Positions 2,328 through 42,937 of a stretch of DNA of 64,000 nt are shown in pieces. The notes under the pieces are model-generated. The model was not told where the DNA came from. It made no database searches and saw nothing but the letters and a program-made list of their open reading frames with translations. Location of the stretch: contig CABZEW010000002.1 of the NCBI GenBank assembly GCA_902524845.1, positions 1,160-65,159 of the forward strand, read 5' to 3'. Made by a program: the position numbers and the translations under genes. The first letter of the stretch is position 1. Every line of letters starts with the position of its first letter. The stretch comes from an uncultured Alphaproteobacteria bacterium (lineage in GTDB: Bacteria > Pseudomonadota > Alphaproteobacteria > Rhodobacterales > Rhodobacteraceae).

Positions 2328-4331
2328 TTACGTTCTTGTTATAACGGCATCTATATTATCTTTTTTTTCTTTAAGGTCTGGTGGCATGGCTTCCATTGCA
2401 AGCTCTCTTATAGCAGAATCTAATGAAATGGTTTGAGAATCTTTTCGACCAAGTCGCCGTAGGTTAACAGACCGGTCTTGAATTTCTTTCTCGCCTACGA
2501 CCGCAATTATAGGGATCTTTGAAAGAGAATGCTCTCGCACTTTATAATTAATTTTTTCATTTCTGTTATCTGCTTTGCACCTTAATCCTACATCTTTAAA
2601 AGATCTGATAACTTCGGCAAGGTATTTATCCATATTAGTTGTTATTGACGCAACTACAATCTGTGTTGGTGCAAGCCAGAGAGGAAGTCTGCCAGTTGTA
2701 TTCTCAAGTAATATACCAATGAATCTTTCAAAAGATCCTAGTATCGCTCTATGTAGCATTACAGGTGTATGCTTTTCTCCCATATCGGTTATGTAGCTCG
2801 ATCCTAGTCTTTCAGGTAAAACAAAGTCAACTTGTAAGGTGCCACACTGCCAATCTCTGCCCAAAGCATCTGTTAATACAAATTCTAACTTTGGGCCATA
2901 GAAAGCTCCCTCACCTTTATTGATCAAATAATCGTATCCTGCGGTTTTGGTTGCACTTTTTAGGGCTTGTTCGGCACGGTCCCAAACGTGATCGCTTCCG
3001 GCTCTATTCAATGGCCTATCAGAAAATTTAATCTTAAATTCTGCAAAACCCAGTTCTTTGTAAATCACAGATAAAAGGTCAATGAATTTTTTTGTCTCGC
3101 TTTCTATTTGCTGTTCGGTACAGAAAATGTGGGCATCATCTTGTAAGAAAGCTCTTACTCTCATTAGACCATGCAGTGCACCTGATGGTTCATTTCTATG
3201 GCAAGCACCAAATTCAGCCATTCGTAAAGGCAGGTCTCTGTACGATTTTATACCTTGATTATAAATCTGAACGTGGCAAGGACAGTTCATTGGCTTAAGA
3301 GCATTTATTCTAGGTGCTTTTTCTTGTTCATCTACCTCAACAATGAACATATTTTCTCTAAATTTATCCCAGTGGCCTGATTTTTCCCAAAGTCGTTTAT
3401 CCACCATCTGAGGTGTTTTTACTTCTAAGTAACCATTGTTTTCAAGTTTTCTACTCATATATCCCTGTAAAGTAGAGTATAGCTTCCACCCGTTTGGATG
3501 CCAAAAAATACTTCCAGTAGCCTCTTCTTGTAGATGGAATAAATCCATTTCCCTTCCTAGTTTTCTGTGATCTCGTTTTTCTGCTTCTTCCAGTCTAAAA
3601 AAATATTGTCTTAGTTCAGCTCTGCTCCTAAACGCTACTCCATATATTCGCTGTAACATTTTATTTTTGCTATCACCTTTCCAGTACGCACCCGCAACTC
3701 TCGTAAGCTTAAAAGCATCTGCAGGAACCTGGCCGGTGTTAGTTAAATGTGGACCTCTACAGAGATCTTGCCAATCACCATGCCAGTACATCTTAATATC
3801 ATGATTGGTCGGAATATCTTGAATAAGCTCAACTTTGTAGTGCTCATTTCTTTCTTTGTAAAACTCCAGAGCTCTATTACGATCCCATATTTCGCTTTTT
3901 ACAAGATCTTTCTTTGCGATTATCGATCGCATCAGCTTTTCAATTTTTTCTATATCATTCTCAGAAAAAGGCTCTTCTTTATCGAAATCATAAAAGAAGC
4001 CATCTTGAATAACCGGGCCTATAGTAACCTTTACATTTGGCCATATCTCTTGAACTGCTCTAGCCAAAATATGTGCACAGTCATGCCTAATTAATTCCAA
4101 TGCTATCTCGGTATCTTCAGTAGTGTGTATTATAAGAGAGCAATCTTCTGTCAATTTAGTTGATAGGTCTGTTAAGTCACCGTTTAAAGAGCATGCTACA
4201 GACTTTTTTGCGAGAGAAGTCGATATTTCTTCTGCTATCTCTAAGCCAGTGATACCAGATGGATACGTTTTTAAAGAACCGTCTGGTAGTTCAACAGCGA
4301 TTTTTTTTTCTTCAGGAAGATTTAAACTCAC
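2328..4331 (-). CDS. thrS: threonine--tRNA ligase
   Basis: 667 aa with a TGS-like N-terminus, editing domain, class II core ([22 protein letters not shown]) and anticodon-binding C-terminus. Conserved thrS-infC order. Confidence 0.95.
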
Positions 4332-5545: not shown

Positions 5546-6313
5546 ATGGTTGAAACAAGTTTCTTTCACATTGACGATGAACAAAAATTAGCTTTTTCAC
5601 AAGTTATTGGTGGCAAAAATAGAAGAATGTTTCCCGGTGTTGTATTCTTGAGTGGTCTCAAGTCAGATAAAGAAGGGACAAAGGCAGTTTTCTTATCTCA
5701 GTGGGCTGAAAAGAATGAGAGGGACTTTTTAAGATTTGACTACCGAGGTCATGGAGCTTCCTCAGGAACGTTTGAGGATACTTCTATTACGGATTGGCTT
5801 GATGATACAATAAGAATTGTCATGGGTCTTACATCGGGCCCTCAGATTTTGGTAGGATCTTCTCTTGGGGGATGGATATCACTTTTATTTGCGCGAATGT
5901 TCCCTCAAAAGGTTGCAGGGGTAATTGGTATTTCTGCAGCTCCTGACTTCACAGCACAATATGCCAGCAATAAACTTACTTCGGATCAAAGACAAGAGCT
6001 ATTAAGTACAGGTAAACTTTCTTTTTATTCTGAGTATTTTGATCAGCCTCTAGTCATTACCAAAAAATTAATCGAAGACGGAAATAAAAACCTAGTTTTG
6101 ACAAAAAAACAAAACATAAAATGCCCAGTAAGACTTTTCCATGGATCTTGCGATGAAGATGTTCCTCTTTCTACTAGTATCGATATATTGAAAAGAATAA
6201 GTAGCATTGACGTGCAACTTCAAATTATTAAAGGAATAGATCATAGGTTTTCTACACCAGACTGCTTGAAACTAATACAAAAAGCAGTAGAGCAGGTGCC
6301 TCTACCCTATTAA
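5546..6313 (+). CDS. alpha/beta hydrolase
   Basis: 255 aa with a GSSLGG nucleophile elbow (G-x-S-x-G) and a late GIDHRF histidine. Confidence 0.7.
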   Translation: MVETSFFHIDDEQKLAFSQVIGGKNRRMFPGVVFLSGLKSDKEGTKAVFLSQWAEKNERDFLRFDYRGHGASSGTFEDTSITDWLDDTIRIVMGLTSGPQILVGSSLGGWISLLFARMFPQKVAGVIGISAAPDFTAQYASNKLTSDQRQELLSTGKLSFYSEYFDQPLVITKKLIEDGNKNLVLTKKQNIKCPVRLFHGSCDEDVPLSTSIDILKRISSIDVQLQIIKGIDHRFSTPDCLKLIQKAVEQVPLPY

Positions 6314-6532
6314 CATTCCGACGAGTACGATAATAAGACCAAAAGCGCCTAATGAAAGAGAAAGATAATTTATCATTATTAATCTTTCGAAGAAAATCTT
6401 TTGTTCTTTCTTGGCGTAACGTTTAGAGTTTTTTCTGATTAAAATACTACAAATGATAACTGTAGAAAGCCCAATTAGACAGAAAAAGCACAGAAAAACT
6501 CCGAGGCTAACTAAAATTAAAGCCAACATCAT
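6302..6532 (-). CDS. small membrane protein (2 TM), hypothetical
   Basis: 76-aa ORF with two hydrophobic helices around a basic loop. No recognisable family. Confidence 0.35.
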   Translation of the reverse strand: MMLALILVSLGVFLCFFCLIGLSTVIICSILIRKNSKRYAKKEQKIFFERLIMINYLSLSLGAFGLIIVLVGMLIG

Positions 6533-6629
6533 TATGCATTACATCAAAACTTAACCGAAATATACAAATAGATAACTTACAATAAAATTTTATTGCAAAA
6601 ACAATAAAATGTTTCTAATTTCGGACCGT

Positions 6630-6705
6630 GCCTCTATAGCTCAGTTGGTAGAGCAACTGATTTGTAATCAGTGGGTCGGGAGTTCGAGTCTCTCTGGGGG
6701 CACCA
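6630..6705 (+). tRNA. tRNA-Thr (anticodon UGU)
   Basis: 76 nt, GCCTCTATAGCTCAGTTGGTAGAGCAACTGATTTGTAATCAGTGGGTCGGGAGTTCGAGTCTCTCTGGGGGCACCA. The cloverleaf was folded by hand: acceptor GCCTCTA/TGGGGGC, anticodon stem ACTGA/TCAGT with loop TTTGTAA, T-arm GGGAG/CTCTC, encoded CCA. Confidence 0.9.
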
Positions 6706-6784
6706 TCCAGTTACAGTGTTAGCTTTATTTGCTTGGCTTTGATGAAACTTAGTCAAGGAGGGTAGACCAAATGGTAGACCAAAA
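6706..6784 (+). promoter_or_regulatory. attL-side arm (P' arm) with tandem 12-mers overlapping the int start
   Basis: TCCAGTTACAGTGTTAGCTTTATTTGCTTGGCTTTGATGAAACTTAGTCAAGGAG, then GGTAGACCAAAT (6761-6772) and GGTAGACCAAAA (6773-6784). The int ATG (6771-6773) straddles the two 12-mers and the SD AAGGAGG is at 6755-6761. Confidence 0.55.
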
Positions 6785-7886
6785 TGGAGCATATTTATTC
6801 AGAAAACGTGGTATCTACTACTTTTCAAAGCGCATACCATCAGATCTAAAACATTTGTATCGAGTAGAGAGACTAATACATTCTCTTAGAACTAAATGTG
6901 ATAGGAAAGCCAAGTCACAAGCATTAGCTATGTTGCTTAAGCTTGACGATCATTGGTCAAAAGCAAGACTGCACAATGATGTGCTTCACAGAAAATCTCT
7001 CAATCACAACAAAGCCATAAAATTCACGGAAAGTGTTTCAGAGTATCTTTCTGCAAATGGATCTAACCGAAGTATAACTTTTGAAAAAGCTGTGCAGAGA
7101 GCATCCAGATACCTTGTAGAGTCTGTTGGAGATAAAGACCTCAAAAGTTACACACGTGCTAATGCAAATTCTTTTAGAGACTATTTAATTGATAAAGGGT
7201 TGGCAGGTAGCTCAATTACTAGAATACTTACCACAATTAAAGCGATACTTAATTTCGCTAAACGTGAACATAGTTTAAATATGAACAATCATTTTGTTGG
7301 GTTGAACTATGATAGAAGCAAGAGAGTAGGGGGCAGACTACCTATTCCTATGAAGCACCTTCAAGCAATACAGAAGCGATGTGTAGAAATAGATGATGAG
7401 CTAAGATGGCTTGTTGCCCTAGTATCAGATACTGGGATGAGATTAGCAGAAGCTACAGGTCTTTTGGTGGAGGATATAAACTTAGATGCAGATATTCCTT
7501 TTGTCTCTTTAAAAAGTTATCCTTGGAGACCTTTGAAGACGGAGGGAAGCACAAGAGATATCCCTTTGGTTGGACAAGCTTTGTGGTCTGCAAAACGAAT
7601 AAAAACCATGTCACAAAGTAGGTTCGCCTTTCCTAGGTATAATACCATGTCTATTACGAGCTCTAATACAGCTAGTGCTACACTCAACAAGTGGTTAAAA
7701 AGCGAAAGTAATTATAATTATACGATGCATTGTTTTAGACACTCATTACGAGATAGATTGAGAAATATTAACTGTCCCTCAGACGTAGCTGATCAGATTG
7801 GTGGCTGGTCTAATAAAACGGTAGGGCAGGAATATGGTAGTGGCTATGCTTTGAGGAATTTGGAATGGTGGATGAGTTTAATTTAA
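6771..7886 (+). CDS. tyrosine-type site-specific integrase
   Basis: 371 aa. The N-terminal YYFSKRIPSDL-type arm is common in tRNA-island integrases. The catalytic signature is present: R in DTGMRLAEATGL, H-x-x-R in HCFRHSLRDRL, and W/Y in GGWSNKTVGQEYGSGY. Sits directly 3' of the tRNA. Confidence 0.9.
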   Translation: MVDQNGAYLFRKRGIYYFSKRIPSDLKHLYRVERLIHSLRTKCDRKAKSQALAMLLKLDDHWSKARLHNDVLHRKSLNHNKAIKFTESVSEYLSANGSNRSITFEKAVQRASRYLVESVGDKDLKSYTRANANSFRDYLIDKGLAGSSITRILTTIKAILNFAKREHSLNMNNHFVGLNYDRSKRVGGRLPIPMKHLQAIQKRCVEIDDELRWLVALVSDTGMRLAEATGLLVEDINLDADIPFVSLKSYPWRPLKTEGSTRDIPLVGQALWSAKRIKTMSQSRFAFPRYNTMSITSSNTASATLNKWLKSESNYNYTMHCFRHSLRDRLRNINCPSDVADQIGGWSNKTVGQEYGSGYALRNLEWWMSLI

Positions 7887-7889
7887 CAA

Positions 7890-9368
7890 TTATTTTGTAT
7901 AATGTCTTCTATGCCTTTCCAACCTCTTCCTGTAGCCCTCAGTCGATACACTTTCATTCACAAAATGCATATTATCTAAATAATAATCTCTGTCTGGTCC
8001 TGTACTGTACTTTGCTTGGTTGACCTGACCAAGCGTAAGATTTTTATTAAACTTTACCTTTGTTTTGTTTTTATTCGTGACATATACAAAGGCTTCCTTC
8101 ATCAGTTTCTCAAGCCTGTCCTCTTCTCCAAAAGGAACGATAAAACTATCATGTACGGTCAGGATAGGCGTATCCGTTTTAACAAAATCTTTAATAATAT
8201 ATTCAGCTATTTTACTATCTATATTCATCAACTCTAATCCTGCACCACTATTAATGAGATGCTTAATCTTTGGGTGCTTATCCTTAATGCTCTGAAGTAT
8301 TTCAGAGAGCTTTTCATCAGGAAATGAATAGCGTACAGAATAGTTTTTATAGTCAAACTCTGATCTAAATGCTTTGAATAAACTGGACTCGTCAGACGCA
8401 TTAAATGCGAGCAAAGTAAGTTGCTTTACGACATCTCGTGCATGATCAGGGTACTCTATGCCCTCTATAGGAATATTGTAGGGGTCTTCATCTGTTGTTG
8501 CCCAGTAGTCTATACCCTCTTTGGCATATGCTAGGATTACATGAAGACCAGAGAAGTCTATTTCAACAGTGGAACTATCATTTAATCGTATAGCTCCTCT
8601 TAATATTTGATCTATTTGCTGCCAGAATCCACCGTAGAAACGTCCTCCCTGATCCCATGAGCTATTGTTGAACACTCTATGGGTGAACTTGCCATGATGG
8701 GTAATGTTGACATATCTAGTTTTACCTGAGTTCTTATCTTTAATCTCTAACATGGGTTTATTCATGTCAGGGATATCTATGAATGTTTTTTCCAACAGAT
8801 CGTTGTTAGCTCGTACAACTTTAGCCATCTCTTCTGTATGTTTTGTAGTCTCATATTCAACATTCTTTTTGTTGCTATCACGTAGAATAATGACTTCTTT
8901 ATTCTTAATATAATTAATATCAAAGTATCCAAATTGTGCAGTCTCAAATGCTTCTATAAGGCGCTCATAAGCCCATATACGGGATGTACGTCCTCCATAC
9001 TCAAGACTACCTTCATAACCTTCTTTAAAGCCTATAAGCCCTACATCTTTGAGTCTGTGAATGACTTGAATGATAGTATCTTTTATATGCAGTTCGTTAT
9101 ATCTGCTCTTACCTTTAGAGAAGACTGTCCCATCACTATACGCATTGGGAGACATGTGAACTCCTATACATAGGTTGGGATCATCTATCCATGCTACATA
9201 GAGATCTAGGAGTACTACTTTGAGTAGTTTTTTACGTATAGTTTTGTTGGCATTATCAGTTAGGAAATATTGCTCATATATAGAGTTCACAAATGTGTTG
9301 GTTTCAGTATAACAACTCCACCTATGGACATCTAAAGGTCTTGAATAGTTATAGTCTCTTGTAACCAT
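7890..9368 (-). CDS. compact polymerase-like protein with T7-type single-subunit RNAP / family A palm motifs
   Basis: 492 aa. WDQGGRFY (239-246) resembles T7 DWRGRVY. EIDFSGLHVILAY (D271) resembles motif A DGSCSGIQH. RDVVKQLTLLAFNAS (K315, F322) resembles motif B RSVTKRSVMTLAYGS. TVHDSFIVP (D407) resembles motif C IHDSFGT. The T7 motifs are quoted from memory and motif order is conserved. Confidence 0.55.
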   Translation of the reverse strand: MVTRDYNYSRPLDVHRWSCYTETNTFVNSIYEQYFLTDNANKTIRKKLLKVVLLDLYVAWIDDPNLCIGVHMSPNAYSDGTVFSKGKSRYNELHIKDTIIQVIHRLKDVGLIGFKEGYEGSLEYGGRTSRIWAYERLIEAFETAQFGYFDINYIKNKEVIILRDSNKKNVEYETTKHTEEMAKVVRANNDLLEKTFIDIPDMNKPMLEIKDKNSGKTRYVNITHHGKFTHRVFNNSSWDQGGRFYGGFWQQIDQILRGAIRLNDSSTVEIDFSGLHVILAYAKEGIDYWATTDEDPYNIPIEGIEYPDHARDVVKQLTLLAFNASDESSLFKAFRSEFDYKNYSVRYSFPDEKLSEILQSIKDKHPKIKHLINSGAGLELMNIDSKIAEYIIKDFVKTDTPILTVHDSFIVPFGEEDRLEKLMKEAFVYVTNKNKTKVKFNKNLTLGQVNQAKYSTGPDRDYYLDNMHFVNESVSTEGYRKRLERHRRHYTK

Positions 9369-9527
9369 ACCTTAGTATATTAGGTCACTAAGATGCTATA
9401 AATACTTAATATTAAGTACTCTTATAAATATAGTAACTAATATATATTATTACTTCCTCCATAAACTTCTTCCATTACCAATAGGTTTTTTAAACTATCC
9501 TTGTTTTAACATGAAAGGAGTAGCCAA

Positions 9528-9689
9528 ATGTGGTTACCAATAACTTGTAAAAGCACCAACGCCTACTACATGCAAAGTATGATAATATTCGTAGCAACAT
9601 TAGCCACTATCCTGCTTTTAACAAAGCTTGGAGCAAAGCCGAAGCAACAGCCAAAGCGGTTTAGGGTGAATGCAAAGACGAAAAGTTAA
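9528..9689 (+). CDS. small membrane protein (53 aa), hypothetical
   Basis: Not in the track. ATG lies 8 nt after AAAGGAG. MWLPITCKSTNAYYMQSMIIFVATLATILLLTKLGAKPKQQPKRFRVNAKTKS has one TM helix and a basic tail. Confidence 0.35.
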   Translation: MWLPITCKSTNAYYMQSMIIFVATLATILLLTKLGAKPKQQPKRFRVNAKTKS

Positions 9690-9962
9690 AGCAAAGATTC
9701 AAGCGTGATTATGCACAGAGTTCCAGTAAGCAAGTAGCACAACTGCTAAAACAAGCAGATGATTACATTGCTAGCAGTGGAACTGAGTTTTTTAAATGCG
9801 TAGCAAATAGCAAACAACGCTCGTATAGCGTCATACAAGCGTTGTAAGAGTTTATAGTATAAGATTATGTTTAAGGCTTTTAGACTACGTATAGTGCTTA
9901 AGATTAGCCTACAGCCTCTTCTTCGTTATCTAATTCATAAAAATCAATAACACTTTGAAGCA

Positions 9963-10337
9963 TTATTGAGGACTTATCCACCAATCATCTGTTGCGTTTT
10001 CATATATTTCTAGACCTTTCACAAAATGTTCTTGGAATGCGGGAACTTGTTGCATTTTTCTAAAATCTGCCTGTATAGATGCTATATCTGCACCACTGCT
10101 TGTCCACTTTATTCTATTAGGATTTCCTGAGATAGGTAATGTAACTGCTAGCTCTACTCCATTTTCAGCACATATTTTGACGAAACCAAGAGCATGTTGA
10201 ACTGCTAGTGGTAACGGTGTTCCGTCCCGTACTTCAGCAGTGCGTGACCAGTAAGCCTCTGCAGAAACAAAATTTGTTGAGGCTATTAAACACACTAGCG
10301 TTAATAACATTGATATTTTTCTTCTTATAATTTTCAT
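9963..10337 (-). CDS. small secreted protein, hypothetical
   Basis: Signal peptide MKIIRRKISMLLTLVCLIASTNFVSAEA. The ATG at 10337 is 8 nt after AAGGAG, whereas the track start at 10346 is a GTG overlapping the SD. Confidence 0.55.
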   Translation of the reverse strand: MKIIRRKISMLLTLVCLIASTNFVSAEAYWSRTAEVRDGTPLPLAVQHALGFVKICAENGVELAVTLPISGNPNRIKWTSSGADIASIQADFRKMQQVPAFQEHFVKGLEIYENATDDWWISPQ

Positions 10338-10538
10338 ATTTTTCACTCCTTTTTAAAAATTGTTGAAATTAAATTTCATGAAATAATTTTTTTTTAAAAA
10401 GTGCAATGAACATATCTTATTACGTTGCGTCATGACTAAACACAATCAAATGTTAATGTCTGATTGTGTTTAGTACTGGCTACCATTGTTGTAAAAATAA
10501 ATATTTTCTATAAAGTAGATATGGGGATAGGGGTGAAT

Positions 10539-10865
10539 ATGATGAAACTAAAACATTTTATTGCGACACACACTTTTCATTCGGATAAAGTAAAAAAAGA
10601 ATATTTGAAGTTTGTCAAACATAGGAAAAAAAATGCTGAGTGGTTTGAAAATGTACCACAGAGGGAGGATGCCCAACTACATCAATTGTTTATTGGCAAG
10701 GAAGATTTTTTCTTTTGCCACTGGTATGCTGAGAGCGAAAAAGCGATTATTGAAACTTTATCCGAAGCAGGTGCTGATCAATATATGATAACGATGGCCA
10801 CTGAGGTAGGCGTACCTAAAATTGATTTAGATAAAATGACAATGTTGATGGGAAAAATTAAATAA
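10539..10865 (+). CDS. hypothetical protein (possibly DUF4242-like ferredoxin fold)
   Basis: Likely start is MMKLKH at 10539, after AGGGGTG. FFFCHWYAESEKAIIETLSEAGADQYM loosely resembles DUF4242. The stop TAA lies inside the left end of CBR1. Confidence 0.45.
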   Translation: MMKLKHFIATHTFHSDKVKKEYLKFVKHRKKNAEWFENVPQREDAQLHQLFIGKEDFFFCHWYAESEKAIIETLSEAGADQYMITMATEVGVPKIDLDKMTMLMGKIK

Positions 10866-11061
10866 ACCCCATCTGCTGCATAATCCAAGACCATACTACG
10901 TGTATACCCCTTGCGTCCCATGCGTGGGAGGGGTCACTTAGACTTTGAAACAAATCGTGCCTATTGATATGAACACGGGGATACCTGAGTTCCTGTAATT
11001 CACCTCTTTTTGTTGCTAATGGTGCAGTATAAGGGCAGTTAACTTTATCTCAGCCGCACCA
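10861..11061 (+). repeat. cassette boundary repeat CBR1 (diverged 'type 2')
   Basis: AATAAACCCCATCTGCTGCATAATCCAAGACCATACTACGTGTATACCCCTTGCGTCCCATGCGTGGGAGGGGTCAC ... AATGGTGCAGTATAAGGGCAGTTAACTTTATCTCAGCCGCACCA. The 12-mers and tRNA-derived part are degenerate. Confidence 0.6.
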
Positions 11062-11081
11062 TAATCTGGACCTCTTTCAAC

Positions 11082-12365
11082 CTAAAGCTGTAATTTGTGA
11101 ATACCGATCTTTTCTGTTCTACCTGGAATACTAAAATTTGCCTCGAAATCAGACTTGATTTCTTCAGATAATCGTTTGGCCACGGCATCGCTAATAATTA
11201 CTTGGCTATCAAATTTTTTACACGCATCACATAAACGATTAGCTACATTCACTGTATCTCCTAAAACGGTGAATTCAACTCTCTGATCTCCGCCAATGTT
11301 CCCAATTATGCATGGGCCAAAATGAATGCCAATTCTGTGCGTTATTTGAGGTAGTTTCTTTTCTGCGCGTTCTTTTGACCACTGGTTCATAGAAATTTGC
11401 ATTTTTCTCGCGCATTCAAATGCATTTTGAGCGTCATTGCCTCTACTAGTAGGTGTCCCAAACGTAGCCATAACTGCATCGCCTATAAATTTGTCAACAG
11501 TACCACCTGAACTAAATATCGCAGCAACCATTTTGGACTGGTACTCAGAAACCAATCGAACTACATCTTTGGGATCCATCGTTTCGGTCATCTTCGTAAA
11601 GCCATTTATATCTGTAAACAAAACTCCTACTAAAGAAGATTTTTCTACTTCAGTAATGTCAGAAAAACGGCTATTCTCTATTTCATCTTTAACCTCAGGA
11701 GAAAAATATCTACCTAATACCTGGTTTGCCCTCTCAAAATTCGAAGCTTGATTTGTTACTTTATCGAACTGCCAGCTAGTTACCGTAACCACTATAACCG
11801 TGAATACAACAAATAAACAATTCAAAACAAACCAGTCCAAATTTATAGCGAGTCCGTCTGAGAAAACAACTGGCAGGTTGCTAGAAAAAAATACACCATC
11901 AATGCTTAAAGCCATATATTGCTGGATAACAATGCTAGTTACAAATAATGCCGACAGGAATGCAGAAATAGTCAATCTGAGATATAGAACAGATACCACA
12001 ATAAACATAATACCAGGCGCGAATTGATAATCAACAATCCTTCCAACATTAGACTCAACGAGTAATGGATCATTATCAAGATTCGTAAGTATAGCGACAC
12101 CAATATTTGTTAAAATTATTAATAAAAGGCTCAAGAAAAGTAAAGGGCGATAATTTTCGATTCTAGTGTTCAACGCTATTGCTGCATTTAGTAGCGAACT
12201 AGTAAGAAACAAAGTAGGAAACCCAAACTTACCTAAGTCAGTGCTTGCGGTAGGTATTAGGAGTTGTGAAAATACTACCATCATCTGAATCATAGCATAG
12301 ACCCAGCTCACCATCTTCAACCCAGAGACATATCTTGAAATTAATTGATCGTTATTCATCATCAA
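11082..12365 (-). CDS. membrane-anchored class III adenylate/guanylate cyclase
   Basis: 427 aa with about 6 TM helices followed by a cyclase homology domain (VLFTDINGFTKMTE, DKFIGDAVMATFG, EFTVLGDTVNVANRL). Paralog of 33600..34895. Confidence 0.85.
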   Translation of the reverse strand: MMMNNDQLISRYVSGLKMVSWVYAMIQMMVVFSQLLIPTASTDLGKFGFPTLFLTSSLLNAAIALNTRIENYRPLLFLSLLLIILTNIGVAILTNLDNDPLLVESNVGRIVDYQFAPGIMFIVVSVLYLRLTISAFLSALFVTSIVIQQYMALSIDGVFFSSNLPVVFSDGLAINLDWFVLNCLFVVFTVIVVTVTSWQFDKVTNQASNFERANQVLGRYFSPEVKDEIENSRFSDITEVEKSSLVGVLFTDINGFTKMTETMDPKDVVRLVSEYQSKMVAAIFSSGGTVDKFIGDAVMATFGTPTSRGNDAQNAFECARKMQISMNQWSKERAEKKLPQITHRIGIHFGPCIIGNIGGDQRVEFTVLGDTVNVANRLCDACKKFDSQVIISDAVAKRLSEEIKSDFEANFSIPGRTEKIGIHKLQL

Positions 12366-12462
12366 TCTTTAACCAGCAAAATATTGGTTTGTTTGATAGA
12401 CATAGCATACCTTTTCATAACCAGACCATTCAATAGTTTGTATAGTGAACTTAATAGTTAAA

Positions 12463-12686
12463 GTTGTAAACTCCCCATCTGTTGCACACTCCAAGAAAAT
12501 ACTACGTGTACACCCCTAGTGGTCTGGCATGGGGGTAGACCAAACGGTAGACCAAAATTGTTTAATTGATGCGTAAATCTATGTTAAACTTTCAGATAAG
12601 TAGCCAAGAAAAGCTAATTATAGTTGGTAGAGCAACTGATTTGTAATCAGTGGGTCGGGAGTTCGAGTCTCTTTGGGGGGGCACCA
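12463..12686 (+). repeat. CBR2, full-length 'type 1' repeat with pseudo-tRNA-Thr
   Basis: GTTGTAAACTCCCCATCTGTTGCACACTCCAAGAAAATACTACGTG... The 12-mers are GGTAGACCAAAC at 12534-12545 and GGTAGACCAAAA at 12546-12557. A spacer is followed by the tRNA segment at 12623-12686, which is identical to the gene over GAGCAACTGATTTGTAATCAGTGGGTCGGGAGTTCGAGTCTCT and has a 5-nt D-loop deletion and a non-pairing 5' acceptor. Confidence 0.85.
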
Positions 12687-12741
12687 TCGAGTTCTAGCTC
12701 TGTTTATTTGGCTTTGATGCAGCTTAGTCAAGGATGTAGAC
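12687..12741 (+). repeat. P' arm remnant without integrase
   Basis: TCGAGTTCTAGCTCTGTTTATTTGGCTTTGATGCAGCTTAGTCAAGGATGTAGAC aligns with 6706-6767 next to the real tRNA. Homology stops inside the first 12-mer, where int would start. Confidence 0.7.
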
Positions 12742-12964
12742 ACTGTCAGCACTAATTAAAATAATTTGTTGTGATGACAAAATAAAGTGTGAAACTAAGA
12801 AGTACAATTGGTTTTATCAATCCAACTTAAATTATCTTATTCCATTTTCAATTGCTTTTTAGATATCTTTCGCATGGCCTTTTAACGAAATACTCACAGA
12901 GAAATTATTTTTGTAGTCTAATTAGAAATCGTTATATAAACTGACAGCTGTAGGTAAGCAAAGA

Positions 12965-13165
12965 ATGGAAAAAATTGCAAAACTAATAAATGTAACCACA
13001 CAAGATTTTGGGGCGTCAAAAGATACGGTATTGCATGATGTCAGATGGGAAAAAATGAAAGCCCACTGTTTTCCCGTGCTCCAAAAGGCTGGTCAAATAA
13101 AAATTACTACCATAAGGGTCTGGAATAAAGCTAATAAATTCAAATACTTGCACGTTTTTGAATAG
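12965..13165 (+). CDS. hypothetical protein (66 aa)
   Basis: ORF only; no motif and no clear SD. Confidence 0.2.
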   Translation: MEKIAKLINVTTQDFGASKDTVLHDVRWEKMKAHCFPVLQKAGQIKITTIRVWNKANKFKYLHVFE

Positions 13166-13374
13166 AGTAGCCAAAAATCATTTGAAGATTGTCAACCTAT
13201 ATGGAAGCAAATCTAACCCGAGCTTTTCAAAGATCTGTTGGTTAAAATGGTCTCTGACAAGGGTATTGTAGTCGTTGAAGATGTTTAGATAAAAATTACT
13301 CGAGCTCTATAGGATCTCTTTATTTGTAGTTCATAAAGTTTTCTAATCCATAAAATTGTATATACCTGCTACTT

Positions 13375-15228
13375 CTATTGATTTAAATAGCCAATTTCAT
13401 CTAAGTAAGGCTTGATAAGAGGATAAACTTTCCCATCTTTCCAATTCTGTAACCTCGAGATTTTTAATCCCGCCTTATTAGCTCTTGCTAATAACTTTTT
13501 AGCCTCTTCTAAATTACCAACTTCAGCCTCTAAAGCCGCATAAAGAATTAGAAGAAGCGAAGTTTTGTTAGAGAACTCATCGTTTAAAACATCCTTTAAT
13601 AGTGTCTTTATTTCATCCTTTCGATCAAGCATATAAAGCTGAGGGGCCAACTGCATTTTTACCATATGCTGTACATCATTTGGCATCAATCGAAGAGCTT
13701 CATAGCGGTAACCGACTGCTTTTTCAGCCAATCCACACATTTCTAAAATATTTGCCCCGACATTCAAAACAGTCGGATTAGCACTATTGATAGATAGCGC
13801 TTTATTAATGTGGCCCATCGCTATATCGCAATCCTTTGACAAAAAGATAAATTCTACATTCGCTCTCATCATGTACGCATCGTCATTTCCTTTAGTATTT
13901 ATGATATTTTGAGAAATATAATCTAGACGTGCGATATCCTCTTCTCGTTTCTGAGATAGACCTAAACGCAACCTCTGATATATCGTCCAACCTTCGATAT
14001 ATTCCATAACATATTGGTTACTGGATATTTTTTTTAAACTTTCAAATAGTTCTAAATGTTTATTATATCCTTCAGGCGTCCATCTTCTCCATTCATTTCT
14101 GTGATTTAGAAAAAGCGTATATGCTTCAGCAGTATCGAATTCATTCAACCATTTTTTTGCATTTTGGCCTTCAACCATATTTACTTGAAGTTCAACAAGT
14201 AAATTTGTCCCTAAATCATCTTGAACCTTAAAAATATCTTTTTGCTGAAAATCTAGCAAATCTGACCATGATATTGTTCTCTTCTCGAAGTCATAAAGCT
14301 CTACAGTTAACCTACTTTGTTCACCAAAAGCTTGCACAGAACCCTTTATCAAATAATTTACACCAAAATTCTTACCGATCTCATCATCACTTATGTCCTG
14401 CTCTAATATATTAAAACTAGTACTTGAGGACAAAACGTTGATGCCGTTATATTTTGATAAAATAGATATTACACCTTCTGTAAGAGCTGTTCCAACCGAA
14501 CTATTATCTGAACCCAATGTCTGGAATGGCTTAACCAATATAGTGGGCAGAGAGTTTTTGTTTTTCTGTACTTTTAGTTCCTGGTCCGTATCTTCTTTAA
14601 ATATGCTGAATGTTGAAAAGACCAAAAAGCCAATTACTAAAAGAGCTGCAATTGCTCCAACGGACACAAACCTCAAGCTTTTTTTATTTTTAAGTGTTCT
14701 CTTTTGCGACGGATCAAGAAGTATATCAAACGCATGGAATTCGTTCTGTTTAACCTTTTGTACCCCAAGATCATTAAAAGTCATCTTAGTTTTTGGCACA
14801 ACAAAGTCGTATACACTTTTTGATATTGATATCCCGTTCGGTTGAGCAAGAGCTTCTAGCCTGGCGGCGATATTTACACCGTCTCCTATAAGATTGGAAT
14901 CTTTTCTTACGACATCTCCCATATTTATACCAAGACGAAACTCCAGCTTTACAACTGCTTTTTGAGAGTCGTGTCTTTTCTTTATTTGTTTTTGGAACTC
15001 AACTCCACACTCAACAGCATTAACAGCACTAGGAAACTCAGCCAGGACCGAATCTCCAGCAGTGTTAAACACAGATCCCTTATATTTTTTGAGGAGTGTT
15101 TGTAAGATCTTTTCACAAGAATTGTAGCTATTGATTGTGGCATTTTCATCTTTTTCCATATGCTTGGAATAGCCAACTACGTCGGCAACAAATATAACAG
15201 CGATTTTACGATCAAAATTGCTAGACAT
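13375..15228 (-). CDS. class III adenylate cyclase with TM segment and C-terminal TPR-like domain
   Basis: Start moved to MSSNFDRKIAVIFVADVVGYSKHM at 15228, because the track's 56-aa N-terminal extension runs through CBR3. The cyclase domain (FNTAGDSVLAEF, NLIGDGVNIAARLE) is followed by one TM helix and TPR-like repeats. Confidence 0.85.
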   Translation of the reverse strand: MSSNFDRKIAVIFVADVVGYSKHMEKDENATINSYNSCEKILQTLLKKYKGSVFNTAGDSVLAEFPSAVNAVECGVEFQKQIKKRHDSQKAVVKLEFRLGINMGDVVRKDSNLIGDGVNIAARLEALAQPNGISISKSVYDFVVPKTKMTFNDLGVQKVKQNEFHAFDILLDPSQKRTLKNKKSLRFVSVGAIAALLVIGFLVFSTFSIFKEDTDQELKVQKNKNSLPTILVKPFQTLGSDNSSVGTALTEGVISILSKYNGINVLSSSTSFNILEQDISDDEIGKNFGVNYLIKGSVQAFGEQSRLTVELYDFEKRTISWSDLLDFQQKDIFKVQDDLGTNLLVELQVNMVEGQNAKKWLNEFDTAEAYTLFLNHRNEWRRWTPEGYNKHLELFESLKKISSNQYVMEYIEGWTIYQRLRLGLSQKREEDIARLDYISQNIINTKGNDDAYMMRANVEFIFLSKDCDIAMGHINKALSINSANPTVLNVGANILEMCGLAEKAVGYRYEALRLMPNDVQHMVKMQLAPQLYMLDRKDEIKTLLKDVLNDEFSNKTSLLLILYAALEAEVGNLEEAKKLLARANKAGLKISRLQNWKDGKVYPLIKPYLDEIGYLNQ

Positions 15229-15284
15229 ATTGAACCATAGGGACACAAAAATTAATTTACAAGATTGACGTAACTGGAGTTCTT

Positions 15285-15400
15285 TTCTGCTGTGCTTGAC
15301 TGCAGCGTACTCCAAGAAAATTCTGACTGTACGTCCCCAGTAGTCCTGCATAGGGGTAGACAAAACTCTAAACAAATATATGCGTTGGGAGACCACCCAG
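15285..15400 (+). repeat. CBR3 (decayed left module with degenerate 12-mers)
   Basis: TTCTGCTGTGCTTGACTGCAGCGTACTCCAAGAAAATTCTGACTGTACGTCCCCAGTAGTCCTGCATAGGGGTAGACAAAACTCTAAACAAATATATGCGT. Confidence 0.55.
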
Positions 15401-15454
15401 AGTGGGCGAGATTAGTTCATCCTACTTGTTTATTTCTAGCAATATTCCATAAAT

Positions 15455-15483
15455 TTGACAATTTAGAGTTTTTTGTAGATAAT
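15455..15483 (+). promoter_or_regulatory. sigma70-type promoter of module B copy 1
   Basis: TTGACA (15455-15460), 17-bp spacer, GATAAT (15478-15483). The same geometry is conserved in copy 2. Confidence 0.6.
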
Positions 15484-15489
15484 ATCGCG

Positions 15490-15593
15490 GGAACAAGTCT
15501 GTGAGAATGTTGTACCAGTTGGGGAGGAAAATTCCACAGAAACACTATTTCTATACATTATTCTGAAAATTAAACAGGCTGTTCCTTTTTTTT
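15490..15593 (+). ncRNA. candidate ~105-nt structured RNA (sRNA or leader) of module B copy 1
   Basis: Predicted +1 is about 7 nt after the -10. 5' GGAACAAGTCTGT (15490-15502) can pair with ACAGGCTGTTCC (15574-15585), directly followed by T8 (15586-15593). An alternative hairpin, CTGTGAGAAT/ATTCCACAG, presents a CCAGTTGGGGAGGAAA loop. Confidence 0.45.
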
Positions 15594-15623
15594 AAAAAAA
15601 AAGGGCCACACTTTGTATGGCCC
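15594..15623 (-). terminator. intrinsic terminator-like hairpin reading on the minus strand
   Basis: GGGCCA...TGGCCC hairpin (15603-15623) preceded by A9 on the + strand, which is hairpin plus U9 on the minus strand. Conserved in copy 2. Confidence 0.4.
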
Positions 15624-16119
15624 AGTGGGGAGGAAATGTCCGATTAGGACAATAGTTTGATGTTAAACTAAATATCTTAGACTGCAAGAATAACGTGACG
15701 TTAACGTAAACTTAACGTTGAGTAATTCTTAATAAAGTTACCTTCGATCTGGCAACACTTTAGTTTGCAATTAAATTACCTTACAAGTTTAAAAGGATGC
15801 TCAGGTATCTGAAGTTATTGTGTAAATGTTTCGGTCAATTATTTGCTAATTTTGACCGCTTGATTGAAACAATTCTTAAAATTGTAGCTTAATAAAATTA
15901 TAACTCGTCGTAATGAGGGTTTACTTGGTTTTATAACAAGAGCGAAAACGAATTTGTAATTAATGATTCACTAAAAAATTTATTACTGCATCAGTTTGTA
16001 TTTTTAAAAAAGGCATAGTGAACGCAAGGTCTCAGTTTTATTATTTTGGAATTGAGATAATGGCATAAACAAAAAGGATCAGATTAAATATTTCCAGAGT
16101 TTCAATTCTGATGTCGTTT

Positions 16120-18042
16120 CTAATCAGACAGTCCTAGCGGCTTAAGTACATTGCCAATGTCAGCCAAAAACTTCTTATTCTGGAATGCAGGATAGTCAGA
16201 AAACGGGGAGTTTGCAGTATATTTCCTCCCAATACCATTACTCATTTCTAATGTTTGAGCAGCAAGTTTGTTTTGTTTTTTCTTTTCATAAGAGTACGCC
16301 AATAGGGCCGAGATCGTTGGCAATGCCATAACATCATTATGGTATCTCTTGGATTTCTCTGACATCCAAAGGCTCTCGAGTTTTCCGGAGTCCACACCAT
16401 ATTGAAAAGTGAGATAGGCATATCCATAAGCAAGATATTTCGCGTTAAAAGCGCTAGGTCTTAATTCAAGTGATCTTTCCATATGAAGCAAGCCTTGCTC
16501 AAATTGATCTTGTGAGCTCCCATTCGAAGAACAGACTTGGTACAATAATCCAAAGTCGAATTGGCTCAGATGATCGTCGTAAATCCTATTTTCATATTGT
16601 TTGAGATCTGGAATAATAGAACAAGCCAAATCAAACTTCTGTAAGATTGCCTGATAAATACTCTTTCCCGCAAATAAATATAAATATATTGAATCAGCTT
16701 GATCAACAAATTGAATGCCGTGAGATAGATAATTTATGGCCTTGTTGATTTCCAAGGTAGGATCATCAACAAGTCCCAAGCTAGTACTAGCAAATGTATG
16801 AAAAGCTGCCAGTTGTAAAACGTGAGGATCATTTGGTGCAGAAGCTAGGTTCCTTTGTAATAGTTGACCTGCATAAGTCACACTCTCGACTGTTGATTTT
16901 AGAATAGCCTTATCAATCTTGATAAGATCAAAGTAAGTTTTGGGGTCATTCGTGTATTTGAACACGTGCTGCTTAGATGAAATATATCTCGATAATCCCT
17001 TCATAAGAAACATTGCAAGTTGTTCTTTTACCACGATCATGTTTTCTTCTATTCGGAAATCATACTGCTCTCTGAAAATTGTTTCAGAGGATACTGCTTC
17101 AACAACTCTGTATTGAACTCTTATAAATTCCTCTGAGTTTTGTACTGTGCCCGTGACCACATAGCGGATATCATTATTTGCCGCCAATTCTTTGTAAGGC
17201 AGTTTTTCTTCGATGAGCAATTGAGCTTCGATAGAGTCAATAAATTTCATATCAGTATTAAGATCTGATAAAGTATTGTTGATACTAACAGAGAGGTTAG
17301 CTTGTTCACTGCCAAAGTTTTTTTCAGAACTTTGGCTTTCAAATGGAAGAATAAGTATTTTCGGTCTTATATCGGAAATATCTGTAGCTGAATTTATTTC
17401 TTCATTATTAAAGAAAATAGAGAAGTATGTAATTGCGGCAGAGGATATTAAAATTAATACTGCCAGTCCAAACATACTCAGCTTTTTCAATCCGGATTGG
17501 GGTCTCAATTTTCGTTTTTGTTTAGGATCAAGTATGACATCATAGACGTGAAATTGGTTGCTTTTTACTTTCTGTATACCCTGGTCAGCAAAAGAGAGCT
17601 TTGTCTTGGAAGATACATATTCAAAAATGCCCTTTGAAATTGATATCCCACTTGCTTGAGCCAAAGACTCTAGACGGGCGGCTATGTTGACTCCGTCACC
17701 TAAAAGGTTTCCTTTTTCCTTTATTACATCCCCAACGTTAATCCCGATGCGAAACTCTAACTTAACTGTTGCACCTGCAGTTTTATTTCTTCTTTTAATT
17801 GCATTTTGAAATTCAACGGCGCACTCAACCGCGGCAACGGCACTTTCAAACTCTCCAAAAAATGAGTCTCCCCCAGTATTAAAAAGTCTAGCTTTATATT
17901 TCTCGAAAAGGTCCTTTAGCAAACTTTCGCACGCTCGAAGGTTTTTTATAGTAGCATTTTCATCGCTTTCAATGTGCTTACTGTATCCAACTACATCAGT
18001 CGCAAAAATTACAGCAATCTTCCGCTCTATGGCAGTGTTCAC
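16120..18042 (-). CDS. class III adenylate cyclase with TM segment and C-terminal helical-repeat domain
   Basis: 640 aa. N-terminal cyclase domain (IAVIFATDVVGYSKHIE, FNTGGDSFFGEF, NLLGDGVNIAARLE) and one TM helix. Same architecture as 13375..15228. Confidence 0.85.
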   Translation of the reverse strand: MNTAIERKIAVIFATDVVGYSKHIESDENATIKNLRACESLLKDLFEKYKARLFNTGGDSFFGEFESAVAAVECAVEFQNAIKRRNKTAGATVKLEFRIGINVGDVIKEKGNLLGDGVNIAARLESLAQASGISISKGIFEYVSSKTKLSFADQGIQKVKSNQFHVYDVILDPKQKRKLRPQSGLKKLSMFGLAVLILISSAAITYFSIFFNNEEINSATDISDIRPKILILPFESQSSEKNFGSEQANLSVSINNTLSDLNTDMKFIDSIEAQLLIEEKLPYKELAANNDIRYVVTGTVQNSEEFIRVQYRVVEAVSSETIFREQYDFRIEENMIVVKEQLAMFLMKGLSRYISSKQHVFKYTNDPKTYFDLIKIDKAILKSTVESVTYAGQLLQRNLASAPNDPHVLQLAAFHTFASTSLGLVDDPTLEINKAINYLSHGIQFVDQADSIYLYLFAGKSIYQAILQKFDLACSIIPDLKQYENRIYDDHLSQFDFGLLYQVCSSNGSSQDQFEQGLLHMERSLELRPSAFNAKYLAYGYAYLTFQYGVDSGKLESLWMSEKSKRYHNDVMALPTISALLAYSYEKKKQNKLAAQTLEMSNGIGRKYTANSPFSDYPAFQNKKFLADIGNVLKPLGLSD

Positions 18043-18086
18043 AGGAGTTCTTTCATAAAGTCCTTATAATGAACTTTATACGCACA

Positions 18087-18312
18087 GTTGTAAATACCCC
18101 ATCTGCTGCACACTTCAAGAACATACTACGTGAGTACCCCCTATGTCCCACGCAAGGGTGGGGTAGACCAAACGGTAGACCAAAAGTGATTAATTTATGC
18201 TTTAATCTATGATATGCTGGTAAAAGAGTAGCCAAGAAAAGCTAACTATAGTTGGTAGAGCAACTGATTTGTAATCAGTGGGTCGGGAGTTCGAGTCTCT
18301 CTGGGGGCACTA
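18087..18312 (+). repeat. CBR4, full-length type 1 repeat with pseudo-tRNA-Thr
   Basis: GTTGTAAATACCCCATCTGCTGCACACTTCAAGAACATACTACGTG... 12-mers at 18162-18173 and 18174-18185. The tRNA segment at 18251-18312 ends CACTA instead of CACCA. The track ORF 18053..18235 lies inside this repeat and is judged spurious. Confidence 0.85.
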
Positions 18313-18433
18313 CAAAAAAAGCGAAATCAATCTAAAGATATTTTTCCAAAAAAATTGGGCTACACCGGGGGAAACATATTATGGAGAAACCATCTACAAA
18401 AACCATGCGCTTCCTAGTTTATAAATCTCTTGT

Positions 18434-19147
18434 CTAAGTTTTTGTAACCATAGCCTGTCCAGTGGGCAATTCACAAATGAAATAGTTTCTTTCTTTAAAC
18501 CATGCATGCTCTTTTAGAGCCTGAATTATTGCAATTTTATTACCATAGTCATCTAGTAAACATACAGACCCTCTGACCATTTTTTCAAACAAAACTTCTA
18601 ATGCACCAATCTCTCCTAAAGACGTGTTCAAATCTAAGTGCAGAAATGAAACCTTTGTTAGCGTGTCAGTTTCATTAAAAATTTCAGGTACTTTTCCCTT
18701 AATTATTTTGACGTTAGTCAGTCCCTTGAATCTTTCTTCAACTTTTTTGAGATTTGATTGATCTTCATATCTGTCGATTTTTGTCCTATTTTTGTCTAGT
18801 TGTTCTGCAGGAATACCTTCCCAAGTATCAAAAAGGTAGAGTTTCTTGCTTAATCTCCCAAAGTCTGTATATCTTGTTGCAACAGCTGAAGAAAAGCCTC
18901 TGTAGACACCACATTCAATAAGATCTCCTTCGAGTTTTAACCCATTGATAAAAGCCCATAAAAAAATATGAACTCGCCAAACGCGTATCTTTTCTCGCTT
19001 GTCTTCATATGTTTCTCTGTAAACCTTTGCAAACTTCTTATCCTTCATAAATAAAAGGTTTTGATCGAAGACACATAAGTTTTCTGCATGGAAAACCTCG
19101 CTTTCCATATTCTCTTTAAATCCTTTTATAATTTGTGATTTAATCAT
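18434..19147 (-). CDS. TylF/MycF-family class I SAM-dependent O-methyltransferase
   Basis: 237 aa. LIECGVYRGFSS (SAM-binding loop), LFDTWEGIP and LHLDLN motifs are typical of macrocin-O-methyltransferase-like proteins. Confidence 0.7.
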   Translation of the reverse strand: MIKSQIIKGFKENMESEVFHAENLCVFDQNLLFMKDKKFAKVYRETYEDKREKIRVWRVHIFLWAFINGLKLEGDLIECGVYRGFSSAVATRYTDFGRLSKKLYLFDTWEGIPAEQLDKNRTKIDRYEDQSNLKKVEERFKGLTNVKIIKGKVPEIFNETDTLTKVSFLHLDLNTSLGEIGALEVLFEKMVRGSVCLLDDYGNKIAIIQALKEHAWFKERNYFICELPTGQAMVTKT

Positions 19148-19233
19148 GCTTATCTCTTACCCCGCCAGATAACTCTTCTCAAATGAGCTTACAACAAATT
19201 TATAACAAGGAAATAGTAATTTACCGTATTTTA

Positions 19234-19420
19234 CCAAGAACGTACTACCCGTACATCCCTTATGTCCCCTGCGGGGGAGAGGTAGACCAAATTCTTTTAA
19301 ATGATGCGTAAATCTATGTTAAGCTATTAGAGAAGAAGCTAAGAAAAGCCAATAATAGCTGGAAGGGCAACTGATTTGTAATCAGTGGGTCGGGAGTTCG
19401 AGTCTCTCTGGGGGGCACCA
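19234..19420 (+). repeat. CBR5, type 1 repeat truncated at left, with pseudo-tRNA-Thr
   Basis: Starts at CCAAGAACGTACTAC and lacks the CCCCATCTGCTGCAC part. Single 12-mer GGTAGACCAAAT at 19281-19292. tRNA segment at about 19355-19420, with a perfect anticodon-to-T-arm match and one extra G. Confidence 0.8.
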
Positions 19421-19746
19421 CAAAAAAAATAGCTTATGAAAAAAGCGCACTGGCGGCAAATTTATTTTGGGTAGCTAATGGCATTCTCGTGGCACAGACT
19501 ATGATGCAAATTTAACCAATATATTGCTCTCAATTTTAGTTAGCTTGACCTATAGCCCTGGGGTATCTCATCTTTACAGATTTAGACTGGTTACATAATT
19601 ATTATGAGGACATAGTGTTGGAAGAAGTGAAACACTTTATTTAACAAGAATATTCAAGATGGAGGTACTGTCATATGTTATAATTGAAACTCTTGACATA
19701 AATCTTAATTGTATCGATGCTGATAAACCCAATTATGGTAGGTTTT

Positions 19747-24722: not shown

Positions 24723-24917
24723 CATCTGACCTGCTTCCCCAAGAATATACTACGTGCACATTCCCTGTGTCCCATGCGTGGGAGGGCTAGACAAAACGGT
24801 AGACAAATATGTGCGTCTTGACATGAATTACACTTTATCTAACATAGTGATATTGCTTACGTCGATGTAGTCATTGGTGCAGGTACTGAGCAATTAACTC
24901 TCTCTGGGGGCGTCACA
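24723..24917 (+). repeat. CBR6 (type 2)
   Basis: CATCTGACCTGCTTCCCCAAGAATATACTACGTGCACATTCCCTGTGTCCCATGCGTGGGAGG GCTAGACAAAAC GGTAGACAAATA ... ATTGGTGCAGGTACTGAGCAATTAACTCTCTCTGGGGGCGTCACA. The right flank (AAAATAATTGAT...) is also shared with CBR9. Confidence 0.75.
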
Positions 24918-31278: not shown

Positions 31279-31363
31279 CTCCATCCGCTGCATACTCCAA
31301 GAATAGAATATGGCCTCACTCCTAGTGGTCCTGCATTGGGGTAGACAAAACAGTAGACAAACA
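31279..31363 (+). repeat. CBR8 (left module plus 12-mers)
   Basis: CTCCATCCGCTGCATACTCCAAGAATAGAATATGGCCTCACTCCTAGTGGTCCTGCATTGG GGTAGACAAAAC AGTAGACAAACA. Confidence 0.7.
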
Positions 31364-31907: not shown

Positions 31908-32105
31908 CATAAACACCCCATCTGTTGCACACTTTAACAATAGAATAACTTCATACTTCTAGTGGTCTGGCATAAAGGTAGAAAAACGGTAGACAAATAG
32001 GTGTGGCGTGATATGGACCTCTCTTTATCTAACAAATTGATACTCCTTAGTCTGATTTAATGATTGGTGCGGGTAGGGAGTAATTAATTTTTCTGGAGGC
32101 ACCAC
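31908..32105 (+). repeat. CBR9 (type 2)
   Basis: ATCATAAACACCCCATCTGTTGCACACTTTAACAATAGAATAACTTCATACTTCTAGTGGTCTGGCATAAAGGTAGAAAAAC GGTAGACAAATA ... ATTGGTGCGGGTAGGGAGTAATTAATTTTTCTGGAGGCACCA. Confidence 0.75.
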
Positions 32106-37724: not shown

Positions 37725-37731
37725 CCTGAAT

Positions 37732-42739: not shown

Positions 42740-42937
42740 CTGCAATCACCCCATCGACTGCGCATTAAAGGAACATAATATCCTGACACCCTTTGCATCA
42801 TGCGTGGGGGGTAAACAAAATGGTAGAAAAATTTGTACATCTTGACATGAACTACACTTTCGCTAACTCATTGGTGGTGCTTTCCATAATGTATGTGTTA
42901 GTGCAGGTATAGAGCAATAATTCCCTCTTGGGCGCCA
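42740..42937 (+). repeat. CBR15 (type 2)
   Basis: CTGCAATCACCCCATCGACTGCGCATTAAAGGAACATAATATCCTGACACCCTTTGCATCATGCGTGGGGGGTAAACAAAAT GGTAGAAAAATT ... TTAGTGCAGGTATAGAGCAATAATTCCCTCTTGGGCGCCATTG. Confidence 0.7.

Follow-up and report, generated by a model that had tools for sequence, protein, structure and literature searches.

Introduction

In phage lambda, attP carries a short repeated motif that differs from the core and is placed on both arms, at distances from tens of bp to about 150 bp. Two such sites are present on the P arm (P1 and P2) and three on the P' arm (P'1-P'3), the latter in direct tandem with a spacing of roughly one turn of the helix. For KplE1/HK620 IntS the arm sites of attL overlap the int promoter and lead to negative autoregulation, and a KplE1-like layout was predicted for 61.5% of tRNA-associated int genes, such genes being expected to be autoregulated in general (Panis et al., 2010; PMC2951348). 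In the alphaproteobacterial element ICEMlSymR7A, which occupies a tRNA gene and has intS right after attL, five arm-type motifs TGKTGGTATC are located in a 283-bp attP; IntS reduces its own expression in a PintS-lacZ fusion, and RdfS binds attP immediately upstream of intS (PMC11963761). Here we describe tandem 12-mers in a 64-kb stretch of DNA (the window) that represents contig C2 of a 1.9-Mb, 36% GC, 74%-complete genome from a marine Paracoccaceae member. The repeats overlap the translation start of a tyrosine integrase gene (int) located after a tRNA-Thr(TGT) gene, and they recur in the distal arms of the elements that make up the island. They are probably the arm-type (P, P') sites of a heterobivalent tyrosine integrase, with DUF6538 as its arm-binding domain.

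The locus resembles each of the described systems in part. As in lambda, a short motif outside the core is found on both arms at similar distances, the P' sites are tandem direct repeats spaced by about one helical turn, and Int has a separate small N-terminal domain, here modelled as a sheet plus a helix. It differs from lambda in that this domain is DUF6538, with no detectable sequence relation, and in that two plus two sites are present. Furthermore, the 5' end of int abuts the P' arm, whereas in lambda it is the 3' end, and hence the sites are located on the start codon here. Sites for integration host factor (IHF), Xis, and Fis were part of the lambda comparison and none was identified. 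With KplE1 the locus shares the co-oriented tRNA and int genes, the position of int right after attL and P' sites in the 5' control region of int. However, the KplE1 sites cover the -10 and -35 elements of a mapped promoter, while those described here cover the Shine-Dalgarno (SD) sequence, the ATG and the first codons. The motif and the number of sites differ from those of ICEMlSymR7A, which is also, unlike the elements studied here, a large conjugative element with a known recombination directionality factor (RDF). The IntS of Mesorhizobium is, we assume, a P4-type integrase and not a DUF6538 protein.

Tandem 12-mers on both arms of the attachment site

The sequence GGTAGACCAAA had seven exact matches in the window compared to 0.03 expected, and none of 100 shuffles reached seven. 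The matches start at positions 6761, 6773, 12534, 12546, 18162, 18174, and 19281, all on the + strand, and with a unit period of 12 they form an exact 23-nt dimer at 6761-6783, 12534-12556, and 18162-18184. A relaxed dimer search, in which C or A was permitted at one position and up to three mismatches were accepted, added dimers starting at 15356, 24787, 31341, 42144, and 42811, with none expected by chance. Another dimer, at 31979, is distinguished by a 1-nt deletion. The arm repeat is an 11-12-nt unit unrelated to the tRNA core, and dimers were found at 9-10 arms of the window. A previous inspection of the window from the letters alone (the sequence-only reading) had placed the tandem units over the SD sequence and start codon of int with the ATG bridging them, dimers upstream of two pseudo-tRNA copies, a single unit at 19281-19292, and degraded dimers at five further places. 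We recovered all of these, those at 12534, 18162, and 19281 as exact matches and the degraded ones within 1-2 nt of the coordinates given. The claim that the dimer recurs in every repeat arm was overstated; the motif is present in about 10 of 13 arms, and the dimer is missing from 4 of about 13 repeat copies (10845, 28688, 38307, and 39486), and the copy at 10845 carries a different motif, belonging to another integrase type.

The tRNA-Thr and int genes have the same orientation, and int lies directly after attL with its start 65 nt past the tRNA. Because of this short distance the P' pair, which begins 57 nt past the tRNA end and reaches to about 80 nt past it, falls on the SD sequence, on the ATG, and on the initial four to five codons of int. 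The in-frame reading upstream and into int is TAG (6750) S R R V D Q M V D Q N, and the first unit is outside the open reading frame (ORF) because of this TAG. The V, D, and Q codons of int lie entirely inside the second unit, which runs from the G of the ATG to the second base of codon 5.

The P arm copies are part of larger repeat modules with the order conserved block, variable G-rich hairpin, dimer, 65-105-nt spacer, and partial tRNA-Thr. A 61-nt part of tRNA-Thr is repeated at 12622, 18250, and 19357 (family D6), while some modules end in only the last ~15 nt of the gene. The P pairs begin 125-151 nt before the core 3' end, and every dimer has the same orientation. In an alignment of P arms the GGTAGA of unit 2 was the sole invariant block beyond the tRNA part. 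Relics of the int-proximal spacer were found after two modules, with relic P' spacer copies following the partial tRNA at 12687-12745. Judged by its layout, B-O-P'(1)-int ... P(1)-O-P'(2) and so on, the module series bears the mark of serial integration at a single tRNA.

These features suggest the following mechanism. The tRNA-Thr(TGT) island would have been built by serial integration of small elements, each contributing a P' pair beside int and, with the same orientation, a P pair upstream of the core copy at the far end. An Int monomer would place its N-terminal domain on an arm unit and its C-terminal domains on the tRNA-derived core to form the recombination complex, with DUF6538 occupying two P' and two P units in a lambda-style intasome.

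Table 1. Positions of the integrase locus, arm-type units, and associated features. Positions refer to the window unless a locus or contig is given.
Feature	Position	Strand	Remarks
tRNA-Thr(TGT)	6630..6705	+	ARAGORN; Rfam 70 bits; 3' part is the attL core (crossover region)
P' arm spacer, tRNA end to first unit	6706..6760	+	terminates in SD AAGGAGG (6755-6761)
P'1 unit GGTAGACCAAAT	6761..6772	+	non-coding; overlaps last G of SD and AT of start codon
P'2 unit GGTAGACCAAAA	6773..6784	+	codon 1 third base to codon 5 second base
Tyrosine integrase, 371 aa	6771..7886	+	Pfam: DUF6538 (residues 8-66), SAM-like and catalytic domains
P arm dimer, element 1, GGTAGACCAAAC + GGTAGACCAAAA	12534..12557	+	65 nt upstream of partial tRNA-Thr 12622-12686
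P arm dimer	18162..18185	+	65 nt upstream of partial tRNA-Thr 18250-18312
Single P arm unit	19281..19292	+	partial tRNA at 19357-19420
Variant P arm dimer CTAGACAAAAC GGTAGACAAAT	24786..24809	+	second spacer family; core-like tRNA 3' end 24899-24915
Variant dimer GGTAGACAAAAC AGTAGACAAAC	31340..31363	+	
Variant dimer, unit 1 with 1-nt deletion	31978..32000	+	core-like end 32088-32104
Diverged dimer GTCAGACCAAAG GGTAGACAAAA	42143..42166	+	
Diverged dimer GGTAAACAAAAT GGTAGAAAAAT	42810..42833	+	core-like end 42924-42937, then relic P' arm
Diverged dimer GGTAGACAAAAC TCTAAACAAAT	15355..15378	+	no core copy close by
Other-class unit TTGAAACAAAT	10945..10955	+	P arm; core 11045-11061 is tRNA-Leu 3' end
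Second P arm family	24786-24917, 31978-32106, 42810-42939; L093, L096, L098		
Joint clusters at ACTACGTG palindrome	12503-12516, 18121-18139, 10899-10915, 15335-15338		
GTAGCCAAGAAAAGC-like block	12601-12616, 18229-18244; L061 P arm; G125:C1 P spacer		
Inverted P-core-P' copies	L052 (G197:C1:1166500-1178500) ~2650-3000; L053; G000:C18 ~37400-37979	minus (L052, C18)	

Conservation of the dimer in related elements

Conservation of the dimer at int starts in homologous islands had been named as a test in the sequence-only reading; the homologous islands were found to keep the motif there, and the reading is thereby favoured rather than refuted. Two syntenic islands with the same context of threonyl-tRNA synthetase, hydrolase, and tRNA-Thr genes, and with integrases 62-64% identical to that of the window, carry the dimer on the ATG. 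The P' spacer is also kept in these islands (L060 and L061), as well as in the C26 element of the same genome. In L061 (int 62% identical, same tRNA-Thr site) the dimer is again found 65 nt before a partial tRNA, 6.3 kb downstream. In G125:C1 two copies of GGTAGACCA are located on the ATG, and the pair recurs at the far end of the element, ~105 nt ahead of the core copy. A third copy in G125:C1, which lacks int, consists of core, P' spacer, dimer, P spacer, and core (L049 reverse complement ~10390-10760); a deletion between the two 24-bp direct dimers of one element would leave just such a unit. Loss of units by slippage is also indicated by the arm at 19281, which lacks exactly one 12-nt unit compared with 12534-12557.

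Other lineages carry other motifs at the same positions. A family at tRNA-Thr(CGT) in G125:C3/C4 has two copies of GGTAGGACA on its P' arms, and the P arm of G125:C4 has GGAAGGACA + GGTAGGACA ~75 nt before a core copy. In G197, a complete genome, two elements located at tRNA-Ser(GGA) and tRNA-Ser(TGA) have CTGACCAAAT TGCTGACCAAA on the int start (CTGACCAAA class) and CTGACCAGATTA CTGACCAAT (CTGACCAGA + CTGACCAAT) in the P arms, ~108 nt before the distal core copy. By lineage, the motif is GTAGACCA, CTGACCA, GTAGGACA, or GTGAAACA, and each variant recurs at the distal end of its element upstream of a core copy. Altogether there are four motif classes, each matched between the P' and P arms, and within a pair both units vary jointly.

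In ~20 int loci from at least eight Paracoccaceae genomes the best period-12 tandem was located at -45 to -54 nt from the G-YYF Gly codon, with a single one at -66; the repeat is clear in most of these loci and weak in a few. DUF6538 was found in 41 of 301 sampled alphaproteobacterial genomes. A tandem with a period of 11-13 and a score of at least 6 was present at or just before the int start in 13 of 29 DUF6538 loci, compared to 3.6% of random 63-mers from the same 29 loci; with a score of at least 8 it was present in 7 of 29 compared to 1.4%. Examples are tandem copies of TGTGACACACG, AGGTGGTACA, GCTACACA, and CTGTCCCACA, and the class-wide survey also gave motifs similar to TGWGRCACA arrays and TTGGTAGGAAT (13-bp period). 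The likeness of AGGTGGTACA, from locus L069, to the Mesorhizobium motif was considered as a link to Mesorhizobium IntS; L069 is located at tRNA-Ser and is without the TGKTGGTATC motif set, and no link was shown.

Several motif classes occur within the genome of the window itself. The C26 integrase, located after tRNA-Leu(CAA) and 59-68% identical to that of the window, has the identical 24-mer on its ATG, and the dimer GGTAGACCGAAT GGTAGACCAAAA is found 10.5 kb off at the far end of the element, just before the contig end. This integrase (G000:C26:9423-10551, minus strand) is split into two overlapping frames corresponding to query residues 1-232 and 229-369, the result of either a frameshift or an assembly error. 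The C18 integrase (42% identical, at another tRNA-Leu) has GTGAAACAAAAT GAGAAACAA at the same position relative to the int start. A unit (G/T)TGAAACAAAT was found in P arms joined to the C18-type tRNA-Leu core, both at the C18 end and at 10945-10955 of the window, and GTGAAACAA is paired with the tRNA-Leu core at the same two places. The C18 contig end is 82.5% identical to window positions 10946-11088 over 143 nt (blastn). The repeat at 10845-11100, which lies inside the tRNA-Thr island, belongs as an att arm to an element specific for tRNA-Leu (core TCTCAGCCGCACCA, unit TTGAAACAAAT), and arms of elements that target different tRNAs are therefore found together in the island. Since several classes of motif coexist in one genome and each of them goes with a particular integrase and core type, a host factor is excluded as the binder.

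The P arms of a second family contain the dimer GTAGACAAAAC GGTAGACAAA (GTAGACAAAA variant), which is present as an exact copy in 12 of 22 congeneric genomes. The spacer of this family leads into the final ~15 nt of three different tRNAs (Thr, Leu-CAA, and another Leu), and the P arm is thus modular with respect to the core. Copies of the GTAGACAAAA variant bearing an ATG in congeners (L095 and L098) were considered as the start of a cognate int and discarded, as they are not intact int genes.

The N-terminal domain of the integrase

Lambda-type arm-binding domains consist of a three-strand sheet plus a helix. An AlphaFold2 model of Int residues 1-80 (predicted local distance difference test score of 84 from a 41-sequence alignment) has the same order of elements, with strands at 8-12, 15-21, and 34-39, a short helix at 24-29, and a long helix at 44-78. 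In an exhaustive structural comparison the best-fitting solved arm domain was that of the Yersinia high-pathogenicity island integrase (3JTZ), to which residues 7-61 of the model could be superimposed with a root mean square deviation of 1.8 Å over 47 residues at 17% identity, with no relation at the sequence level. The DUF6538 evidence is consistent with arm binding by the modelled domain, short of proof. None of the papers in the literature collection searched mentions DUF6538. Among 8,000 candidates scored, 4,680 homologues of the integrase were found at E ≤1e-10.

Weighing the arm-site interpretation

The proposal that the dimers are arm-type sites draws its support from their presence on both arms in one orientation, their set distances to the core, their specificity to integrase lineages, and their independence of reading frame. 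This part of the sequence-only reading stood, while binding by Int itself is what we infer from the pattern.

A number of results weigh against it. The match to 3JTZ reached only Z 4.2 at rank 22, within the background stated for the tool, as was that of an AP2 domain (Z 4.6) in the same comparison. Foldseek against the Protein Data Bank (PDB) gave nothing significant with the N-terminal model, and a PDB sequence-profile search and a permissive Pfam scan gave no link to Arm-DNA-bind families or solved structures. Marine metagenome contigs covering 6000-20000 gave no clean attP/attB junction or excision product; the region was found to be common and polymorphic in seawater, and the joints observed were short-sided and located at repeats and at sequences of relatives. 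No intact integrase was found with the GTAGACAAAA variant on its start. Lastly, a consensus scan of 6706-6770 gave no sigma-70-like promoter, which is weak evidence either way.

It is unlikely that the dimers are instead bound by an RDF (excisionase), or by some other small accessory protein able to polymerise along direct repeats with a spacing near one helical turn. Tandem direct repeats at a spacing of 11-13 bp are also typical of winged-helix RDF sites, the lambda Xis sites X1-X1.5-X2 being an example, RdfS binds just upstream of its intS, and the elements do contain several small unannotated ORFs. On the other hand, RDF sites are usually present on one arm, whereas the dimers are on both, and the motif class tracks the lineage of the integrase, also where three classes coexist in a single genome. 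The small ORFs had no match in Pfam or to any known excisionase family. The only protein common to the elements is Int, and the cargo differs widely between them: a polymerase-like gene and a cyclase in the window, trypsin-like genes in L061, and nothing in the G125 mini-unit. The polymerase-like gene of element 1 (family A, TV-Pol-like), and the fact that iterons are direct repeats, could suggest that the dimers act as iterons, in a replication origin of the element at which this or another replication protein would work. We give this hardly any weight, as the same dimers are present in elements that have no polymerase-like gene (L061, the G125 mini-unit, and G197) and the dimers keep their position relative to the att core on either side of it.

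The second unit is coding and nearly all close homologues begin with MVDQ, which could indicate that the repeat at the int start is kept for translation or for the peptide (a VDQ tag or an unstructured A-rich initiation region), the distal copies being relics of int 5' ends. That P' and P dimers can fuse by deletion, as seen in the int-less unit of G125, would agree with such relics. The reading frames speak for something else. In the int of the window and its close relatives the GACCAAA core is read GAC-CAA, while in G096, G197, and G167 the start codon (ATG or TTG) is located between the units and the core is read G-ACC-AAA, giving MLTK or MQTK. Both units are within the ORF in the MERVLTRLLTKK lineage, whereas the first unit is untranslated in the window. 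A core that occurs in different frames or outside the ORF indicates that the conserved object is the DNA and not the peptide or codons. In addition, the P arm dimers lie across the core from int, with a conserved upstream module and a spacer of their own in several genera, and the two units of a pair vary in concert. The explanation by translation or peptide is very improbable and appears largely refuted by this frame independence.

Regulation of int

It was also proposed from the sequence that int is autoregulated through occupancy of its own start. This is plausible by analogy with KplE1 and ICEMlSymR7A, although we hold it to be slightly less than an even chance. Occupation of the P' pair by Int would probably obstruct transcription entering the gene, resulting in negative feedback. 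The sole sigma-70-like match is located upstream of the tRNA (6561-6588), and no terminator was found after tRNA-Thr. Expression of int may be driven by read-through from the tRNA promoter, or by entry from the P arm in circles or tandem arrays. A more specific and doubtful version is that the P' sites are built into the ribosome binding site and first codons of an int that has no promoter of its own and is transcribed only by read-through, from the tRNA gene or, in circular or tandem elements, from the P arm, such that occupancy or intasome assembly directly gates int. If true, one sequence would be constrained jointly as protein-binding DNA, translation signal, and coding sequence, with different frames used by different lineages. 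Contigs identical to the int 5' region (6777-7064) and to the tRNA were present in an oligo-dT marine RNA-seq run; as DNA carry-over is possible, they do not prove that the region is transcribed.

Additional features of the arms

A conserved block (CCCCATCTGCTGCACACTCCAAGAA.ATACTACGTG) and a variable G-rich hairpin are always located 5' of the P arm dimer (12463-12533, 18087-18161, 10857-10934, and others), and a related G-rich hairpin is found 5' of the P dimer in G197. Joints between repeat copies in metagenomes cluster at a small palindrome around ACTACGTG; these may be points of cassette exchange, or merely the places where the likeness between copies ends. Within the P spacer, another conserved block, similar to GTAGCCAAGAAAAGC and resembling the arm unit, adjoins the segment derived from the tRNA, where it may be a third site close to the core or a site for a bending protein.

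Three elements, two in G197 and one in C18, have a complete attP-like P-core-P' copy, in inverted orientation, directly downstream of int, each carrying the core sequence of its own element. In C18 the inverted P' arm (unit plus ATG) heads a different, hydrophobic ORF rather than int. The inverted copies may represent an invertible segment or the product of an integrase-mediated inversion. A relation to the tycheposons of Prochlorococcus, suspected from the low GC content and the tRNA islands, was dropped, as the preprint describing these is without such repeats and the homologues were from Paracoccaceae.

Concluding remarks

Arm sites with probable self-repression are established biology; the integrase family that carries them here is unstudied and common in marine bacteria. 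For DUF6538, which heads thousands of integrases, the analysis offers a probable job, DNA binding at arm sites, together with concrete target motifs. The frame-independent conservation provides a clean example of how a DNA site can be told from a peptide motif. For the abundant marine Paracoccaceae, the ends and the working parts are defined for the small tRNA-targeting elements that would build their hypervariable islands, and such islands thereby become easier to delimit.

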